From positions 3,141 through 67,140 of the forward strand of contig MHOA01000002.1 in NCBI GenBank assembly GCA_001821765.1: a stretch of 64,000 bases of DNA, in the 5' to 3' direction. Numbering within the stretch: position 1 is the first letter of the stretch; every line of letters starts with the position of its first letter. Of this stretch, positions 26,928 to 53,622 are shown one piece after another. Below the pieces are notes generated by a model. It worked only from the letters and a program-made list of their open reading frames with translations. It had not been told where the DNA came from and searched no databases. Position numbers and translations under genes: made by a program. This DNA comes from Candidatus Ryanbacteria bacterium RIFCSPLOWO2_12_FULL_44_26. GTDB taxonomy: Bacteria > Patescibacteriota > Minisyncoccia > Ryanbacterales > HO2-45-13.

Positions 26928-27262
26928 TGTTTTCCTCTTTGTTGAATGTTTACTATGCCAATGTACTACATTAATTATAGCCAAAAAAATTAAAAAACTC
27001 GGAATCTGTTCCGAGAACTTTTCAGTATTCAAAATTTTCGTGCGCGCATTTCAGAAAAGTTTTTGAAGCGAGGGGGGGGCGGGCATTCCTCCCCCCATTC
27101 CCCTCCTGCCGCGCCGCCCGAGCGTTCCGCCGTAGCGACTTGTGGTGAGCTTGGTCGAACCAAGCGGAGGCGGGTCAGTTTTCTTCAAAATACTTTCGCG
27201 CTACGTTCAGAATATCCCACTGAAAACACAAAACCCACCATTAAGGTGGGCTGTGTTTTCAG

Positions 27263-27622
27263 TGGAAGTGGCGGGAATTGAACCCGCTTGGGGAAAGGTT
27301 GCCTACGAGCATCTACACAGATAGTCGGTTTGGATCACTACATGCTGTAAAACCAACAAAACGCATGCAGGTGTGTTTTCTTTTAAGTTTCCTATGCACC
27401 TAGAAAACGAACGATGCACAGTAGTTCGGAATTTGACACCGGAATCGTTACCTTACGAACATCAGTAACACCGATGGCTTACGCTAACTTAAGCGTAAAC
27501 AGGTTGAAGCTGATTGCTTCTAAATAAGTTTGCACTTATTGTTCAAACGGAGATTCAAAAGCGACGTTCACGCTTTCTGTGCGCCCATTAAGAATAACTT
27601 TCCCTCGAGGCCTAACACTCCC
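27263..27622 (-). ncRNA. ssrA: tmRNA (ssrA)
   Basis: Minus-strand 5' end GGGAGUGUUAGGCCUCGAGGG pairs with the 3' end GGUUCAAUUCCCGCCACUUCCA (T-arm plus acceptor; CCA not encoded). Resume context AAUAAGU-GCA AAC mirrors E. coli; predicted tag ANLFRSNQLQPVYA then UAA. Lies immediately downstream of smpB. Confidence 0.75.
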
Positions 27623-27700: not shown

Positions 27701-28144
27701 TTATATATATTTCAAGCTGCGTTCCACCTTTCTTTTTGCCTCGCGCTTTTTGATTACCTCACGCTTATCGTATTTTTTCTTTCCTCTCACCACCGCAAAC
27801 TCCAACTTTATCTTCCGGCCCTTATTATACAGCTTTAAGGGCACCATTGTCAAGCCTTTCTGTTTTTCTTTCCCGAGCAGATATTGTATTTCTTTCTTAT
27901 GCAAAAGCAGTTTTCTCGCGCGGTCGGGTTCGTACTCTTTTGGCGTATTTGCTTTCTGGTACGGCGGAATATGGACGCCCACCGAAAACGCCTCATTGTT
28001 TCTGATAATAACCCTTCCACCTTTTAAAGCGGCGCGTCCGAGAAGAATGGACTTTACCTCAAACCCGCGCAGACTTAACCCCGCCTCAAATTTCTCCAGG
28101 ATTTCATAGTCGTGGTATGCTTTTCTGTTTTCCGCAAGCGCCAT
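27701..28144 (-). CDS. smpB: SsrA-binding protein SmpB
   Basis: LAENRKAYHDYEILEKFEAGLSLRGFEVKS is the conserved SmpB N-terminus, followed by a Lys-rich C-terminal tail. Confidence 0.9.
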   Translation of the reverse strand: MALAENRKAYHDYEILEKFEAGLSLRGFEVKSILLGRAALKGGRVIIRNNEAFSVGVHIPPYQKANTPKEYEPDRARKLLLHKKEIQYLLGKEKQKGLTMVPLKLYNKGRKIKLEFAVVRGKKKYDKREVIKKREAKRKVERSLKYI

Positions 28145-28351
28145 ATAAATTATTAAAGCACTAAACCATTGCAATAAAAAGCATGTGTTCCGATACGCAC
28201 GAAGAGAAAGAAATGAAAAATTGCAAAGAGACGCGGTTTGGTTTAAAGGACACTCAACTACGCTGCTTGACGATATTTATACAGGATATAGAATGCTTTT
28301 TGGGTGGAACTTTGAACGTTTTGATACATTCATAGGTGAGAGGGCAAGCGA

Positions 28352-40703: not shown

Positions 40704-41234
40704 TTAGTAAAACCGCGGTTCTGCATACTCGTTCGCTTGGCGATGGGCATCGCTAATGTGAAACAAATGCTGAAACATCGTAAGGTGCGTCGGGTCTCCC
40801 CGTTTCACGCGAGCCCATTTGATAAGTTTTTCGCCTCTTTTCCAGCATTTCCATATTGCAGACCAGTAAAGGGCTAAGATTGGATCGGGATCAAGGTATT
40901 CTTGCCACAGTAGATATCCAACGATGTCAAAGGCGACCAATGCTCTCGCACAAGCCTCCAAGTGCTGCTTCACTTTTTCATCTGGTAGGCCAGCAATATC
41001 CTCCGGCACCGTTTCGTAGAGATATCGCCGCGCAATTCGTACTTCCTCATTTTCCAATTCGTTGAATATGGCAAATGAGATTTGGACCGTTCTGCCCTCA
41101 GCCGCTTCCTTAACTTGTTTGCGAACGTAGAGAAGGGTAACAAAGATTAACAGCGTATAGATGGTTGTTATAATCGCAAGCACTGCTTCCCAATTAATGG
41201 GCAACCATTCCCAATTCATTTTTTCGCCATCCAT
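40704..41234 (-). CDS. Hypothetical membrane-anchored protein (176 aa)
   Basis: N-terminal TM (AVLAIITTIYTLLIFVTLLYV) plus a soluble domain; part of the uncharacterised cluster. Its start overlaps the stop of the upstream paralog. Confidence 0.5.
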   Translation of the reverse strand: MDGEKMNWEWLPINWEAVLAIITTIYTLLIFVTLLYVRKQVKEAAEGRTVQISFAIFNELENEEVRIARRYLYETVPEDIAGLPDEKVKQHLEACARALVAFDIVGYLLWQEYLDPDPILALYWSAIWKCWKRGEKLIKWARVKRGDPTHLTMFQHLFHISDAHRQANEYAEPRFY

Positions 41235-41479
41235 TTTTCAAAGAACAATGGATGGTCTCTATCGCCGTGGCGGGCTTCGTCTTCCAACTTTAGAGAAATG
41301 TAGAACGATACAAATCCGATTATTACGATGCCAGCGCCCGATACAACAAACGAGAGCTTCGACATCGAAAGTCCTATTGCAGTAACAGGAACGCCGGATG
41401 CAAAAAGCAGGATACACAACACCCAGAATATATTGGAGAACTTCATTCTCTCGTTGAAATTTAACCTTTCCTTCTTCAT
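41216..41479 (-). CDS. Small 2-TM protein, paralog A (87 aa) with C-terminal HGDRDHPLFFEKW motif
   Basis: AAGGAG SD 8 nt upstream of the ATG for MKKERL…. Aligns along its full length with paralog B; both are 87 aa. Confidence 0.55.
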   Translation of the reverse strand: MKKERLNFNERMKFSNIFWVLCILLFASGVPVTAIGLSMSKLSFVVSGAGIVIIGFVSFYISLKLEDEARHGDRDHPLFFEKWMAKK

Positions 41480-41493
41480 TTTATCATCTCCTT

Positions 41494-41757
41494 TCAGTTG
41501 TGTTTTTTCACCACCCACCTTTCAAAGAAAAGTGGGTGCCCACTGTCACCGTGCTTTACTTCATACCCCAACTGTAGCGAAATAGTGAGAGCAATAAAGG
41601 CAAGCGGCACACAGATAATGCCAAGAACCATAGAAGTAGTGTTCTGTGCTGCAAATCCTATCACCGCGAGTACTGCGCCAAGGAAAGGAAGGGCTACGCA
41701 AGCTACGAAGAATTTCATAGCAAGATCCGTTCTTTGACCAAACATCAGTCTTTTCAT
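41494..41757 (-). CDS. Small 2-TM protein, paralog B (87 aa) with C-terminal HGDSGHPLFFERW motif
   Basis: GGAG SD upstream; MKRLMFGQRTDLAMKFFVAC… ends …EVKHGDSGHPLFFERWVVKKHN. Confidence 0.55.
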   Translation of the reverse strand: MKRLMFGQRTDLAMKFFVACVALPFLGAVLAVIGFAAQNTTSMVLGIICVPLAFIALTISLQLGYEVKHGDSGHPLFFERWVVKKHN

Positions 41758-41862
41758 CTCTTTTCTCCTTTAAAAGAAAATCCATCTCAATAATGGCATA
41801 ACATAACACAGAAGTCAAGGTTTTCGTTAGTAGGTTCAATGCTTTTCCAGCATTACAAAAAC

Positions 41863-41891
41863 TTGACATTTTTTTATAACAGTGATATGAA
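41863..41891 (+). promoter_or_regulatory. Sigma70-like promoter for the + strand pair; a divergent minus-strand promoter shares the same intergenic region
   Basis: TTGACA (41863-41868), 17-nt spacer, TATGAA; AGAGGAG SD then GTG at 41951. On the minus strand, TTGACT–N17–CATTAT precedes paralog B. Confidence 0.35.
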
Positions 41892-41950
41892 AAAAGCAGA
41901 GCTGTAATGGTATAAGCTCTTTGATAACTCAAAAAAGAGGAGATACTCCA

Positions 41951-42148
41951 GTGGGACTTACCTACCTCTTGCTCCTGGACATCCTCGTTGGGGTGGTCTG
42001 CGGAGTAGTGGCGAAACGGAAAGGGATGAATCCTCTGTTCTGGTTCATCTCGGGACTGCTGTTTAACCTCTTCGTCCTTGCTTTTCTGGTTGCGATGGAC
42101 CATCCGCCAGTGAAAGTATGGGATGCGAAAGGAAAGGAACGAAAATGA
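41951..42148 (+). CDS. Small 2-TM membrane protein (~65 aa), GTG start
   Basis: SD AGAGGAG 8 nt upstream of the GTG; VGLTYLLLLDILVGVVCGVV…FISGLLFNLFVLAFLV. Its stop overlaps the next gene's start (ATGA). Confidence 0.5.
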   Translation: MGLTYLLLLDILVGVVCGVVAKRKGMNPLFWFISGLLFNLFVLAFLVAMDHPPVKVWDAKGKERK

Positions 42149-43665
42149 AGTGGTCAGACGTTGTTGTAAAGTTGCGTCGGTTGATAAAAAACTTCCTTAG
42201 ATTTTCCGTGGCATTTCTTCTTTTCGTTCTCGGTCTTGCATTTGTTGTTTTTTCCGTCAAACTGATCATCGGCTTTGTGCTTTTTGACTGGTACGTTGAA
42301 CGTCTGGTTTCAACGTTCGCGCTGGATACCACGCTTGCCAGATGGATTGCCGCCTATGCAACGCTTACAACAATACTATTTTCCCCCATGTTTCTTTGGT
42401 GGTGGCTTGCTCGTAAAAAGGCAGAGATATTCACTACAGCATCAGTTATCTTTCTGCTCGGCGGACTCTGGCTTGTATACGGATCTCGGACAATCGTATA
42501 TCGCAGTGATACTGGAGAGCCAATGAAGTGCTATCTAAAGACCCTTGACGGGTTTAAGCTGGCAAGCAGAACTGTTGATGGAACATGCCCGTATGATCAA
42601 GAAACCGGCGTCAGGTTTAAGGAATTTGAGGGAAATAAGTCAGCGGCAATAGAATACAAGCTTTGGAGAAAAACCAGAAAGCTTGGCATTCCTGATGTTG
42701 AGTGTAACAACTACTTCGACATGCTCACTGGGAAAGGAATTGTGTGGTATGGTTTCCGGGATCCGGGCACGATCGCACTATTTTCTCTCCCCGGCTTTGA
42801 TCCGAGCACTGGAAGTGTCCTAAAAACCATCACTCCTGAAATGCTGACGTCTCTTACGTCCGGCGAATATCTCGTTATAAACGGGATTTCCGGAAAAGCT
42901 GTTTGTCCAACTGAACAAAAAGTTGAACAGAAAGCACTCGAGGAGGATCTTGAAAAAGCAACACAGTCCGTCATCGCTTTGGAATCAGAACTGCAAGAGA
43001 CAAGAAACCAACTTCAAAAAGCCCGGTCGGAAATCACTCAATTGCGGAAAGAAACTGATCAAGCCAGAAGTCAGGCTGCGGAAGCTCAAAAACAAACAGG
43101 GAAGAAAATGGACGAAGCAATGCAAAAGGCGGCTCGTGCGGATAAAATCGTCCGCGAATCGGAAAATGAAAAAACGCTTGAGAGTGAACTGCGCAAAAAC
43201 TACCTTGTCAGCGGCAATAAGCTCACCGGTTCTAAAGGTGGCGGCGGAAGATACGCATCGTTAACAATGCGGGCGCATAAGGCATTCCTTGCGCCGCCTT
43301 ACCTTGTAGTGAGCGTACTGGTAAAGTCCAATAATGATGATCCAATTCGTTTTATGCCAAAATCAGCTGAGCTCTCTACCGGCGACGATTCGATCATGAC
43401 TACAGACCATCACTTTGTACTCACTGAACTTGAACAAGACTGGAGCAATCACTACACCATTTATAAGGATCAAACGCGCATCCTTTTCTTTGTGTTTGAT
43501 CATCCCTCGGTACAAATACCGGAAAATGGGAGCATAAAAGTGAGCTTTGACGCCGAAACCGAAGTCATGAAGTTTCATATTCCTCCATTTAAGGAACAGG
43601 TTGACGATTATTTCTCAAGCGAGAGCAAATTTGTCCTCGCAAGTTCTGGCAGTGAAAACCAATGA
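42145..43665 (+). CDS. Hypothetical membrane protein with central coiled-coil and C-terminal globular domain (~507 aa)
   Basis: N-terminal TM helices, a long Glu/Gln/Lys-rich coiled-coil (ALEEDLEKATQSVIALESELQETRNQLQKARSEITQLRKE…), and a C-terminal domain of unknown family. Terminator at 43805-43836. Confidence 0.55.
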   Translation: MKWSDVVVKLRRLIKNFLRFSVAFLLFVLGLAFVVFSVKLIIGFVLFDWYVERLVSTFALDTTLARWIAAYATLTTILFSPMFLWWWLARKKAEIFTTASVIFLLGGLWLVYGSRTIVYRSDTGEPMKCYLKTLDGFKLASRTVDGTCPYDQETGVRFKEFEGNKSAAIEYKLWRKTRKLGIPDVECNNYFDMLTGKGIVWYGFRDPGTIALFSLPGFDPSTGSVLKTITPEMLTSLTSGEYLVINGISGKAVCPTEQKVEQKALEEDLEKATQSVIALESELQETRNQLQKARSEITQLRKETDQARSQAAEAQKQTGKKMDEAMQKAARADKIVRESENEKTLESELRKNYLVSGNKLTGSKGGGGRYASLTMRAHKAFLAPPYLVVSVLVKSNNDDPIRFMPKSAELSTGDDSIMTTDHHFVLTELEQDWSNHYTIYKDQTRILFFVFDHPSVQIPENGSIKVSFDAETEVMKFHIPPFKEQVDDYFSSESKFVLASSGSENQ

Positions 43666-43804: not shown

Positions 43805-43836
43805 AGGTCCCCTCTGCAATGCATGGGACCTTTTAC
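43805..43836 (+). terminator. Rho-independent terminator
   Basis: aggtcccctctgcaatgcatgggacct then tttact. Confidence 0.45.
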
Positions 43837-43890
43837 TTAGAAATAAAACCCAATACGATCATACAAGACCTCACCTTGTACAAGTAATGA

Positions 43891-44304
43891 TCAAGCTTGC
43901 GTTACCTTTTTTCTCCCAAGTGTTGCTTTCCAATAAAGCACAGCGCCGGCTAGCCCCGCAATAATATCTCCAACAAGGTCACCAACCCAAAGATCAGGGC
44001 GGTTGTAGAAAAAATCTATAACTTCTCCATCAAATAAGAACTCCAGCACCTCAAAGAAAACAGCGAACACAAGCACTAAAAGAAGCGTTTGCAGCAATTG
44101 CAGGTTCCTTGAAAGTAAAAGAAAAACCCCCGCAAGAAACGCCCCTCCTATAACATGAAAGAATTTATCAAGCTGAAATGTGACGATAAGGTGCAGTATG
44201 GGAATAGAAGCAAAGAACTTTACAAAAACCTCCCAAGCCACAAGCATAACAAGCGCAACAACGACAAAGAGTTTTTCTTGATTCCGTTCCTTTATAAGAC
44301 TCAT
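43891..44304 (-). CDS. Small polytopic membrane protein (possibly VanZ-like)
   Basis: 137 aa with 4 TM helices and an acidic motif FDGEVIDFFYN. The family call is tentative. Confidence 0.4.
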   Translation of the reverse strand: MSLIKERNQEKLFVVVALVMLVAWEVFVKFFASIPILHLIVTFQLDKFFHVIGGAFLAGVFLLLSRNLQLLQTLLLVLVFAVFFEVLEFLFDGEVIDFFYNRPDLWVGDLVGDIIAGLAGAVLYWKATLGRKKVTQA

Positions 44305-51072: not shown

Positions 51073-53622
51073 ATGAAAAGAATATTATACATATTCTTTT
51101 CTCTTGCCTTTACTGCCGCGCCGCTTCAGGTATTTGGAGCTGAAATCGTATGGACACAAACCGACTGGTCTGGAGGCGCAGGAACATCGTCAATAAACCA
51201 GTATGAATCAGCGGACGATATCAACACAACAATACCTGGAGAGCTTCGCCTTAAAACACAAACACACACCGTAGACACCCACACGCTGACCGTGACTGCG
51301 GGGGATGAAATTCCCCATCATCGCGCCCGAAACGTCGCGGACGCCGATGACTCAACTTATTGGGAAAGCCATGTGATCCCGGCGTGGGTTCAGCTTGAGC
51401 TCGACGAAGCAAGACTGCTCTCGCGAATTGACCTTGTCATCTCCAAAGGGAAAGTAAGTGAACATATAATATCTGAACTGCCCGTTGATTTCCGCATTGA
51501 TATTTCCCAAACCGGGGCATTTGCCGGAGAAGAAGTACGAATCGCAGAGGTTACCGGCAACACAGAAGCGGGAACAAAGCAGTTTCTGTTTGATCCAACG
51601 CCGGTGCGGTTCGTAAAACTGACCATAACTCGCGTGCCGGAAGATGGCACAGGACACGTGGAAATAAGAGAGCTTGTTCTCTATACAGAGGAAAGTCCTG
51701 GTTTAGGAACGCTTGTTTCATCCGTGTTTGACGCAGGAACAACCACAAATTGGACAACGCTTTCATTCGACGGAAATACCACTTCTACATCAGCTGTTAC
51801 GTTTATGACGCGAACAGGTGCAAACACCGATGCGTTAGGATCCTTCCAGCCATTGAACGAAAGTGCGATTCAAAGTCCAAACGGGCAATTTATTCAGTAC
51901 AAAGTGGAAATGTCCGGGGATACGGCATTGGCGGTAACAGAAATCCGCATCCATGGAGAACATGAAAAAGACAGAACCGATGAAACTCCCGAGTGCAGTA
52001 TAAAGGGCCTATATGGATTGTACTATAATCTGCCGAATAACCACCCCGATGTTGAAAAAAGAATCACGGGGATTATAGCGGGAACGGCGCCGTCTGACTA
52101 CGACTGGTTTGACGAATCGTTCTTGAGCTTTAAGCGAAACGACGCAATAGATTCGTTCAACAATCCGGACAATTACTTTCCGGTAGATAATGGTTTAGAC
52201 GGCGACCCGTATCATTTCGCTGTGCACTGGACAGGATCGGTCTATGCCGCAAATACCGGAAGGTACCCCGTCATAATCGGTTCTGATGATGATTCGTGGG
52301 TGTTCATAAATGACAAGGAGGTCTTAAACCTCGGGGGAACTCATGCGTTCGTCGCGACAACAACAACCCTTGAGCTTAGCGCGGGAACTTCAACAGTTGA
52401 TATATACTTTGCAGAACGGCACACCAGAGCATCGGGCTTTCAGTTTATTCCGGATGAGCAACTGATATTTTCTCCCTGTATTGAACGTGCAGAAGAAAAC
52501 CGCCTTCCCGTCTTCACTGGCCCCCAACAAGCAACGACAACCGTTGCAACATTGCTTGAATTTACCGTAACGGCGGGGGATCCCGATGGGGATGCCCTCG
52601 TTATCACCGCAAATCTTCCTCACAAGGCAACATATGCAACAAGCACAGGGCTTTTTGCTTGGATTCCCGAACAAACGGGTACTTCGACTGCAACATTCTT
52701 TGCATTTGACGGAACCGGTACCAGTACGCATGAAACGTTTATCACCGTCATGGCAACGTCAACAGAGATAAATCTGCCTCCCCTGTTTATTGATTTTGCT
52801 CCCCCAACAACCGCAACAGTCCATGAGCTTTATTCGTATGATGCAGAGGCCGTGGATCCGGAAGGTGATCCTATATCTTTCAGTCTTTTGGAAGAACCTG
52901 CCGGCATGACCATTGCAACCTCAACCGGCATCATCGAATGGATTCCGGATGAAAGTCAGGCTTCCTCAACACCGTACGAGATACTTATTGAAGCAAAGGA
53001 TTTGTTCGGTAAAGCGACTTCTTCGTTTAGCATCACGGTTTTGCGCCCAAGTGATGGCGCAAACGATGATAGCGGAACGGGCGGCAACGGCGGCGGAACA
53101 CCTCCGTCACCTCCGGCAGGTCATGGAATTATTCTTGCAAGTCAGGCTCCAGGAGCTGGAGGCGGAGGCCCGAGAAAAACGGAACTGCCCAAGCCCTCTC
53201 AACCTGCACAGAAAGAGAAAGAAGAAAAGGAAGAAAAAACAAGTACTTCCGCAAGTGATTCAGCACCTTTAAAAACAACTCCGAAGAAAGAAACACCAAT
53301 AAAACCACCGGCTGAAATTCAGCCAAAAGACATCTCAATTACTGAAACACCCGAAGTGAAAGCGCAAACAACGACCCCGGCTGGCGGTCGAAGTTTTGCA
53401 GCTCTATTGTTTGCGGGATTACTTAAAAACTTCCTTCGCTGGCTTCGGGCTCATTGCTGTTTGCTGTTGTTTATATTGTGGTTACTGACGCTTCTGGCGT
53501 TCATCCTGTATATCTTGCGCGAGCGAAAAAAGCGCAAAAGTATTGAAGGAATGAGCGATACCACAACTCCGTCAACGGGAGAAGAGTTGAAAGAATCAAT
53601 ATCCAGCTTTCCCCGACCATAA
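51073..53622 (+). CDS. Large secreted/surface protein: signal peptide, discoidin (F5/8 C)-like, PA14-like and Ig-like (cadherin-like) domains, Gly/Pro/Lys/Glu linker, C-terminal TM anchor
   Basis: 849 aa; signal peptide MKRILYIFFSLAFTAAPLQVFGAE; DDSTYWESH…VQLELD (galactose-binding-like); PA14-like GLYGLYYNLP…HFAVHWTGSVYAANTGRYPVIIGSDDDSWVFINDKEVLNLGG; two LP..F…ATV.ELYSYDA.A.DPEGD repeats; GTGGNGGGTPPSPP low-complexity; C-terminal TM LLLFILWLLTLLAFILYIL plus RERKKRK. Confidence 0.7.
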   Translation: MKRILYIFFSLAFTAAPLQVFGAEIVWTQTDWSGGAGTSSINQYESADDINTTIPGELRLKTQTHTVDTHTLTVTAGDEIPHHRARNVADADDSTYWESHVIPAWVQLELDEARLLSRIDLVISKGKVSEHIISELPVDFRIDISQTGAFAGEEVRIAEVTGNTEAGTKQFLFDPTPVRFVKLTITRVPEDGTGHVEIRELVLYTEESPGLGTLVSSVFDAGTTTNWTTLSFDGNTTSTSAVTFMTRTGANTDALGSFQPLNESAIQSPNGQFIQYKVEMSGDTALAVTEIRIHGEHEKDRTDETPECSIKGLYGLYYNLPNNHPDVEKRITGIIAGTAPSDYDWFDESFLSFKRNDAIDSFNNPDNYFPVDNGLDGDPYHFAVHWTGSVYAANTGRYPVIIGSDDDSWVFINDKEVLNLGGTHAFVATTTTLELSAGTSTVDIYFAERHTRASGFQFIPDEQLIFSPCIERAEENRLPVFTGPQQATTTVATLLEFTVTAGDPDGDALVITANLPHKATYATSTGLFAWIPEQTGTSTATFFAFDGTGTSTHETFITVMATSTEINLPPLFIDFAPPTTATVHELYSYDAEAVDPEGDPISFSLLEEPAGMTIATSTGIIEWIPDESQASSTPYEILIEAKDLFGKATSSFSITVLRPSDGANDDSGTGGNGGGTPPSPPAGHGIILASQAPGAGGGGPRKTELPKPSQPAQKEKEEKEEKTSTSASDSAPLKTTPKKETPIKPPAEIQPKDISITETPEVKAQTTTPAGGRSFAALLFAGLLKNFLRWLRAHCCLLLFILWLLTLLAFILYILRERKKRKSIEGMSDTTTPSTGEELKESISSFPRP

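Follow-up and report, generated by a model that had tools for sequence, protein, structure and literature searches.

The locus and its genes

The gene cluster analyzed in this study occupies positions 40,704 to 43,665 of a 64,000-nucleotide stretch of contig MHOA01000002.1 (the window) from Candidatus Ryanbacteria bacterium RIFCSPLOWO2_12_FULL_44_26; the Candidatus Ryanbacteria are uncultivated groundwater bacteria of the Candidate Phyla Radiation (CPR, or Patescibacteria). Five membrane proteins are encoded in two divergently transcribed sets, here named gC-gB-gA and gD-gE. The initial annotation, made from the sequence alone, took them for a single operon-like module and a candidate envelope, stress, or host-interaction system. 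With moderate confidence we propose a different reading, namely that the locus consists of two unrelated bicistronic membrane modules lying back to back, each conserved separately across Patescibacteria. The features of the locus, including the predicted transmembrane (TM) segments, are as follows.

40704-41219, minus strand: gA, open reading frame (ORF) of 171 aa (176 aa from the alternative ATG at 41234); predicted single-pass membrane protein, assigned as a divergent member of DUF4760 (PF15956)
41216-41479, minus strand: gB, 87 aa; paralog 2 of the two-TM hairpin proteins, its gene immediately preceding gA
41231-41269, minus strand: tail motif of gB, HGDRDHPLFFEKW
41494-41757, minus strand: gC, 87 aa; paralog 1 of the two-TM hairpin proteins, its gene opening the minus-strand unit
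41515-41553, minus strand: tail motif of gC, HGDSGHPLFFERW
41758-41950: divergent intergenic region of 193 bp; candidate promoters in both directions, as read from the sequence
41951 (GTG)-42148, plus strand: gD, 65 aa; two-TM protein, GTG start after GAGGAG
42145-43665, plus strand: gE, 506 aa; three-helix TM anchor, two repeats, coiled coil, and beta-sandwich
43805-43838, plus strand: candidate intrinsic terminator of gD-gE; hairpin GGTCCC…GGGACC (43805-43830), then TTTTACTT

The ORF list, the sequence, and the translations confirm all five ORFs, and their initial description as uncharacterized, non-catalytic membrane-protein genes is supported. Hydropathy gives two TM segments each in gB, gC, and gD, in agreement with the two helices originally seen in both 87-aa proteins, and one in gA. 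Strong Shine-Dalgarno sites (AAAGGAG, AAGGAG, GAGGAG) are found upstream of gC, gB, and gD, with AAAGGAG lying 8 nt ahead of the gB ATG, and the ATGA stop/start overlaps of gB with gA (at its 171-aa start) and of gD with gE are real in the sequence. Thus the ribosome-binding sites and overlaps described for the cluster stand, except that gC and gB do not overlap but are separated by 14 nt. The 171-aa start of gA is favored by its ATGA overlap with the gB stop codon and by the lengths of its homologs (167-191 aa).

The expression signals proposed for the locus are less certain than its genes. The region between the two sets, first given as about 190 bp, measures 193 bp. Its minus-strand promoter candidate TTGACT-N17-CATTAT was recovered by a promoter scan, whereas the plus-strand candidate TTGACA-N17-TATGAA is readable in the sequence but fails the -10 criterion of the same scan, and promoter-like sites in this region are no more frequent than in shuffled sequences (5 versus 5.0 +/- 1.9). 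Likewise, the hairpin reported as a terminator at 43805 exists and is followed by UUUU, but its folding energy is unremarkable (z -0.95) and it was not flagged by the terminator scan. A hypothetical protein encoded by Candidatus Ryanbacteria bacterium RIFCSPHIGHO2_02_FULL_4x (GCA_001819935.1, contig MHNU01000006.1) has the same sequence as gE, and the population contigs carrying gE all match the window at 100% identity over 21.5 kb, which leaves them without polymorphism information.

Direct scans of all five proteins against Pfam, NCBIfam, PHROGs, and PADLOC gave nothing beyond coiled-coil noise for gE, whose helix of about 70 residues accounts for spurious matches to SMC, tape-measure, and LmuB proteins. 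For instance, gA, gB, gC, and gD matched no model of PADLOC-DB v2, in which gE had only coiled-coil matches to LmuB and JetC; sequence-profile searches of the PDB were also negative. A single query was joined from gA, gB, gC, gD, and the two parts of gE outside the coiled coil, and an exhaustive HMMER search with it through 1.84 billion cluster representatives produced 442 hits at E <= 1e-3, 150 of which were listed. Among the 150 matches listed, about 30 are of the gA type and align over its full length (26-43% identity, full-length proteins of 167-213 aa), about 114 align with the first ~240 residues of gE, gD is matched by itself and by P0119 (55% identity), and gB, gC, and the C-terminal domain of gE have self matches only. 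Word-indexed searches with gC and gE retrieved only their own population, the coiled-coil words of gE having probably swamped the search in its case.

Hairpin paralogs and their pairing with gA

The relationship of the two 87-aa proteins, recognized in the initial annotation, is clear: gB and gC are 38% identical over 84 aa in a gapless alignment (BLASTP, E 9e-21). Substitutions between their genes amount to a pN of 0.39 and a saturated pS of 0.75, and identity at the three codon positions is 55/63/39%, the third positions being least conserved. Since synonymous sites are saturated and replacement sites are not, this substitution pattern identifies gB and gC as real genes derived from an old duplication and kept under purifying selection. 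Both proteins indeed carry HGDxxHPLFFE(K/R)W at the C-terminal end, and no family matches this tail. When 185,579 species genomes as well as JGI metagenome and viral contigs were scanned for back-translated HPLFFE(K/R)W, no relative turned up. One database variant, P0007 (112 aa), matches gB exactly through HGDRDH and then continues into an unrelated hydrophobic C-terminus; it probably stems from a chimeric or broken metagenome contig.

A hairpin gene directly precedes gA in eight of the eight distinct CPR arrangements examined; the hairpin-gA loci compared are L009/L010 (Ca. Staskawiczbacteria), L012 (same as L023/L024), L013, L014, L015 (same as L011), L016, and L017 (same as L025/L026). At every readable locus, an ORF of 70-105 aa with two hydrophobic segments lies immediately upstream of the gA homolog on the same strand. 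Similarities of these ORFs to gC or to each other reach E-values of 2e-6 (gC and the 73-aa protein of L009, BLASTP), 3e-6 (gC and the hairpin ORF of L013, tblastn), and 4e-17, and the foreign hairpin ORFs have in common a basic MKRL..Q(R/K) N-terminus and a cysteine early in helix 2. A search with the hairpin profile retrieved seven proteins and no others, all of them small (70-105 aa) and, where named, from CPR genomes. The tail and the duplication were found in none of the foreign hairpin ORFs compared, and both are restricted to the window. Absence of the motif from related genomes had been put forward at the outset as a sign of spurious calls; the tail was indeed absent from all other sequences searched, but tail-less members of the hairpin family occur in other genomes. 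The gene neighbors vary by locus and include a ComEC-like gene (in the window), ClpB with an HtrA-like protease, a type II secretion system (T2SS)-type ATPase, a Fic-like gene, and a C39 peptidase. Because the wider neighborhoods differ, the conserved unit is the hairpin-gA pair itself.

Several of these loci have peculiarities of their own. At L017 (5001-5699; also at 3290-3712 of L025/L026), which belongs to a lineage of the Staskawiczbacteria type, the gA homolog is split into two in-frame segments with about 180 nt containing stops between them, which looks like an insertion or a decaying gene. At L015 (4585-4848 on the plus strand versus 4557-4841 on the minus strand, equivalent to L011:5620-5880), an 86-aa ORF has been annotated opposite the conserved hairpin ORF. 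A JGI gene call, P0159, supports the hairpin strand at this locus, and the opposite-strand call is probably a mis-annotation. Upstream of the pair at L009 (1166-3526) there are several small cysteine-rich, zinc-ribbon-like ORFs and a gene for a protein of 304 aa; the region looks variable, as indels distinguish L009 from L010.

It could be argued that the small ORFs, in part or altogether, are spurious calls, as their products are short and hydrophobic, the word-indexed search brought up no relatives for gB and gC, and the annotation of L011/L015 has an opposite-strand ORF in place of the hairpin ORF. We give this explanation almost no weight. The genes have canonical Shine-Dalgarno sites and translational coupling, the paralogs show the substitution pattern of coding sequences, the position is conserved for the hairpin ORF in eight arrangements and for gD in seven, and the independent gene call P0159 supports the hairpin ORF.

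Assignment of gA to the DUF4760 family

The closest relative of gA in the HMMER search, P0006 (43% identity, E 5.5e-40), matches PF15956 with 36.9 bits (cut-off 25; E 5e-9), and 15 of the 30 aligned members of the gA family match the same model at E <= 0.01, the best at E 6e-10. Because P0006 passes the threshold and half of the aligned relatives match the model, gA is assigned by transitive homology to DUF4760 as a divergent member. Against this assignment stands gA itself, which has no Pfam match to PF15956 at E <= 1 (gathering score 25 bits). Thus the initial statement that no family could be assigned holds for the tail, but not for gA, nor for the N-terminus of gE, which falls into a large uncurated family (see below).

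In the AlphaFold (AF2) model built on the family alignment (predicted local distance difference test, pLDDT, 95.3), gA is all-helical, with a long helix that includes the TM segment (residues 8-34) followed by four further helices (H10-55, 58-69, 80-105, 111-140, 147-162). By the positive-inside rule the helical domain is probably cytoplasmic. A conserved surface of gA is marked by WxxIW(R/K)CWKK / ARRYIY. A fold search of the PDB with this model gave no match at E <= 0.001. The top fold match, the EDS1/PAD4 helical domain, was rejected (E about 1), as was a HEPN-like identity, the fold matches being insignificant and the Rx4-6H motif missing. Among viral proteins, one phage protein in BFVD has the gA fold (E 2.2e-3, prob 1.00), and PHROG 2284 is matched by three of the 30 gA-family members; a viral scan queried with gA gave no match. 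A DUF4760 gene is also present in a Serratia genomic island (PMC9964261).

For the hairpin partner of DUF4760 in CPR no description was found, and the pairing offers a concrete starting point for a function-less family. We know of no function for DUF4760, and so membership in it gives no mechanism.

Possible roles of the hairpin-gA pair

In the mechanism that we propose, a hairpin protein, its two termini probably cytoplasmic, would be co-translated with the single-pass gA, which carries a helical DUF4760 domain of about 130 aa. In the lineage of the window, an ancient duplication of the hairpin gene would have been followed by gain of the cytoplasmic HGDxxHPLFFE(K/R)W tail in both copies. The hairpin protein or proteins and gA may then form a non-enzymatic membrane hetero-oligomer, with the tail docking on the DUF4760 domain; the tail seems well placed to contact gA, since the positive-inside rule would put both the hairpin termini and the helical domain of gA in the cytoplasm.

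As to what such a complex might do, we tentatively rank highest an accessory conflict-type role, for instance in phage or mobile-element exclusion. We lean this way because of the relatives in phages and genomic islands, the lineage-specific duplication and tail, and the gene decay in one lineage. Several results weigh against it. The DUF4760-positive relative of gA had no tblastn match in phage and plasmid collections, and in PADLOC the gA family has three scattered single-member matches with no model matched consistently; the conflict-type reading is therefore circumstantial, drawn from distribution. In addition, genomes of the Staskawiczbacteria type keep the hairpin-gA pair in a stable position beside the ClpB and HtrA-like protease genes, which fits a housekeeping or stress role as well.

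The latter role, that of a housekeeping membrane module tied to membrane stress or protein quality control instead of a conflict system, is suggested by these ClpB and HtrA neighbors and comes next in our ranking, though we regard it as doubtful. The pair is found between or beside ClpB and the HtrA-like Trypsin-PDZ protease at L009/L010, L016, L017, and L025/L026; further, no defence family is matched, and gA residues are strongly conserved across lineages. However, these loci appear to come from related lineages, the two named ones both being Staskawiczbacteria, and the synteny may be inherited and not functional, while the neighbors in the window and at L012, L013, and L015 are of other kinds (ComEC-like gene, T2SS-type ATPase, Fic-like gene, C39 peptidase). 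The disruption of the gA gene in one lineage also speaks against a housekeeping function.

The gD-gE pair

The order gD-gE, mostly with a 4-nt overlap, is conserved in seven of seven loci, the six foreign ones being L004 and L018-L022. Homologs of gD are 58-65 aa long and lie immediately upstream of every gE homolog examined; the one at L022 is called at 108 aa, and its C-terminal part aligns with gD. The conserved core of the family is A(K/R)K(K/S)G…WF..G..F. The initial annotation had described a protein of about 507 aa combining TM helices, a long coiled coil, and a C-terminal globular domain. The AF2 model of gE (506 aa, pLDDT 78.4) agrees, with three TM helices, one long helix, and a beta-sandwich, and adds a conserved beta-rich ectodomain (residues ~125-250, pLDDT about 90-97). 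The parts of gE, all on the plus strand, are the following.

42145-42495, plus strand: residues 1-117, TM anchor with helices H3-58, H62-88, and H92-116 (AF2)
42508-42621, plus strand: residues 122-159, repeat copy 1 (KCY variant; repeat hidden Markov model (HMM), domain E 1.1e-6)
42712-42843, plus strand: residues 190-233, repeat copy 2 (YFDMLTGKGIVWY…LPGFDPSTGSVLKTIT; repeat HMM, domain E 1.2e-17; block-mean pLDDT 92-97)
42949-43158, plus strand: residues 269-338, single helix of ~70 residues, predicted coiled-coil stalk (AF2 model)
43261-43584, plus strand: residues 373-480, predicted C-terminal beta-sandwich, lineage-specific (AF2, pLDDT mostly 70-88 without homologs)

The anchor is modeled with a pLDDT of mostly 73-95, dropping to 57 at residues 111-120, and the family alignment shows in it a conserved FGLD…AR loop and a basic RKK loop. 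The ectodomain contains a repeat of about 44 aa, FDPxTG…WY…PGFDPxTG, with the consensus FFDPLTGEPIVWYVKTRDGEIEFFDLPGFDPETGEELKPVTPEV in an HMM iterated from gE residues 186-240. Two copies are present in gE, and 2-9 copies in 117 of the proteins retrieved. The many-copy proteins have signal peptides and no CPR-type anchor, and some of them end in a Sel1-like C-terminus. For instance, P0039, P0045, P0064, P0067, P0075, P0083, and P0088 contain 5-9 tandem copies in which cysteine-containing and WY variants alternate, and in P0039, P0045, and P0064 the repeats are followed by the Sel1-like C-terminus, which was the only part of P0045 matched in a tblastn search of plasmids.

No Pfam or NCBIfam model covers the repeat, the gE anchor, or gD. 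By sequence similarity, the N-terminal 240 aa of gE are part of a large uncurated family with at least about 115 cluster representatives. In CPR homologs the anchor and the repeats are conserved, and the C-terminal parts are completely different. A PDB fold search with the gE model gave no match at E <= 0.001; the best Foldseek matches of the C-terminal domain are 4eae (E 0.076) and 3cfu (E 0.11) with prob 0.66-0.77, and it has no Pfam match. At L004, the closest gE homolog, P0004, is flanked by a Band_7/SPFH protein and two paralogous SPFH-like proteins of 396 and 386 aa (SPFH-type genes at 1141-2094, 4328-5518, and 5722-6882). Over its C-terminal ~90 aa, P0004 shares 59% identity with the C-terminus of a protein of 181 aa encoded two genes upstream (L004:2104-2649), and this similarity suggests that the C-terminus of P0004 is a shuffled head domain.

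We suggest that gD is translationally coupled to gE and acts as its membrane partner, and that gE is a surface-displayed scaffold or adhesin-like protein, in which the three-helix anchor would project the repeats, the helical stalk, and a variable beta-sandwich head outward through the wall. The charge distribution around the helices would place the repeats, the stalk, and the head outside the cell.

Independence of the two pairs

When all five proteins were compared with the foreign loci by tblastn, no relative of gD or gE was found in the hairpin-gA loci, and none of gA, gB, or gC in the gD-gE loci. With an hhalign probability of 1.5%, the hairpin and gD families were judged not to be related. 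Given that the pairs never co-occur at the foreign loci examined and that the two small-protein families are unrelated, the divergent arrangement around the 193-bp region would be a juxtaposition and not a single system.

These comparisons bear directly on the initial interpretation, in which all five genes make up one envelope, stress, or host-interaction system, co-regulated from the divergent promoter region and with products that act together. It is true that all five are membrane proteins, that they have a common divergent intergenic region, and that each is without a direct match to a curated family. However, no foreign locus with one pair has the other, the small-protein families are unrelated, and the promoter-like matches are at chance level; we therefore consider a five-gene system quite improbable. 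The gene-neighborhood check splits the cluster into hairpin-gA (8/8) and gD-gE (7/7), which are not adjacent at any foreign locus examined. Thus the initial observation is confirmed, whereas its interpretation is only partly supported.

Some considerations weigh against the reading of two separately conserved modules, too. A RecJ-based scan for syntenic Ryanbacteria relatives found none, and the back-to-back arrangement was seen in one lineage population. The topologies were derived from hydropathy and the positive-inside rule, and the functional statements made for the four families are all inferential.

Proximity to VirB2-like pilin genes

In four of the six foreign gD-gE loci, VirB2-like type IV secretion system (T4SS) pilin genes are found within about 3 kb of the pair, two of these loci having tandem arrays (L018 and L019).

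L018:10124-12138: T4SS_pilin genes, tandem array of five
L019:8711-11890: T4SS_pilin genes, tandem array of seven
L021:9611-10030: T4SS_pilin
L004:232-729: T4SS_pilin

Just 383 of the roughly 3,035 Patescibacteria assemblies, or about 13%, have been reported to contain pilin arrays (PMC12102498), and for the epibiotic growth of Ca. Southlakia epibionticum, the one genetically studied Patescibacterium, a pilin series located in the T4SS gene cluster is essential (PMC10633639). By a rough estimate, two array-adjacent cases in six loci would be very unlikely to arise by chance. We therefore entertain, as a tentative possibility, that gD-gE works with a VirB2-like pilus apparatus in some lineages. 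If so, gE-type proteins would be candidates for a missing adhesin or anchor of this apparatus; otherwise the locus would be ordinary lineage-specific membrane dark matter.

The stronger proposal, that gD-gE serves the VirB2-like pilus or T4SS-like apparatus as a dedicated accessory part (for example as anchor, assembly platform, or pilus-base adhesin), is in our view rather unlikely. It draws on the proximity of pilin genes at L004, L018, L019, and L021, on the rarity of such arrays in genomes, and on weak matches to PrgI (VirB3-like; PF12666, gathering 27 bits) in two of seven gD homologs, the best at E 0.006. The latter are far below the cut-off and typical of noise from TM composition; gC has a PrgI match of only 13.8 bits (E 0.09). 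In addition, gB, gC, gD, and the gD homologs do not match the VirB2/TrbC/T4SS_pilin models (PF04956, PF18895), the genes between gE and the pilins are not conserved, and no VirB4 or VirB6 was seen in the examined loci. The distribution of the pilin genes also counts against any such link, as none lies within 10 kb of gD-gE in the window and none near the pair in two of the six foreign loci, L020 and L022. At L022, a sortase and a CAP-domain protein are encoded next to gD-gE.

Other genes of the window

The surroundings of the cluster are otherwise of the housekeeping kind, as initially described, with NDK, a beta-CASP nuclease, RNase H, RecJ, PGK, and TIM, and no further copies of the gA-gE families were found elsewhere in the window. 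Convergent with gE is a gene at 43891-44304 (minus strand) for a 137-aa polytopic membrane protein without a family match, whose start overlaps the stop of the RNase H gene by 4 nt; with it the RecJ-RNase H operon ends. Farther away, smpB is followed directly by a tmRNA gene with the tag peptide ANLFRSNQLQPVYA (92.8 bits in Rfam; 27260-27622 and 27701-28174, both on the minus strand). Finally, the gene at 51073-53622 (plus strand), 7 kb from the cluster, encodes a large protein of 849 aa, probably a surface or carbohydrate-binding protein, in which F5/8 type C, PA14, Big_9, and He_PIG domains are present.

Implications and comparison with known systems

The present analysis replaces a speculative five-gene system by two testable units. 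It adds gA to a known DUF as a divergent member, and it brings out the sizeable gE family, which none of the curated libraries used covers. A broader reading, which we rate as improbable, takes in both pairs. According to it, gD-gE would be an uncurated, phylum-wide surface module of Patescibacteria that acts with essential VirB2-like arrays in host contact, its repeat being reused 3-9 times in presumably secreted anchor-less proteins, and the hairpin protein with DUF4760 would form a conserved two-component membrane module. If it were correct, the pairing with the hairpin protein would provide the first functional handle on DUF4760.

Four known systems can be compared with the two pairs. The gE homolog P0035 is named TolA in the NCBI annotation, and gE does resemble TolA in combining an anchor in the membrane with a long, charged helical stalk and a small globular domain at the C-terminus, a layout plausible for a tether that spans the envelope. 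However, gE has three TM helices in place of one and an additional repeat ectodomain between the anchor and the stalk, and no tolQ, tolR, or pal neighbors occur at gE loci, the neighbors in the window and at L019 being unrelated. Patescibacteria are considered monoderm and would be without the outer membrane to which TolA connects. The TolA identity was rejected, as neither gE (in NCBIfam and Pfam) nor P0035 matches a TolA model, and the name most likely reflects the Lys/Glu-rich helix.

Membrane-anchored proteins with Ig-like or DUF4352-type sandwiches (YjhA of B. subtilis, 3cfu; the Listeria protein 4eae) are among the best fold matches of the gE C-terminus, which is likewise a predicted beta-sandwich, but the resemblance is generic, with E-values of 0.08-0.4, low TM-scores, and no sequence match to gE. 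The likeness to the VirB2-like arrays and T4SS-like system of Patescibacteria (PMC12102498, PMC10633639) lies in the genomic neighborhood of gE homologs only; none of the five proteins is above threshold for any T4SS component model, and the pair in the window has no pilin nearby.

Finally, gA has the size (about 150-190 aa) and the layout of DUF4760 proteins, an N-terminal TM helix followed by a helical domain, and the family has relatives in phages (PHROG 2284, the BFVD match) and in genomic islands (PMC9964261). It differs from them in falling below the model threshold and in that, in the arrangements examined, the CPR subfamily is always preceded by the gene of a small two-TM hairpin protein.

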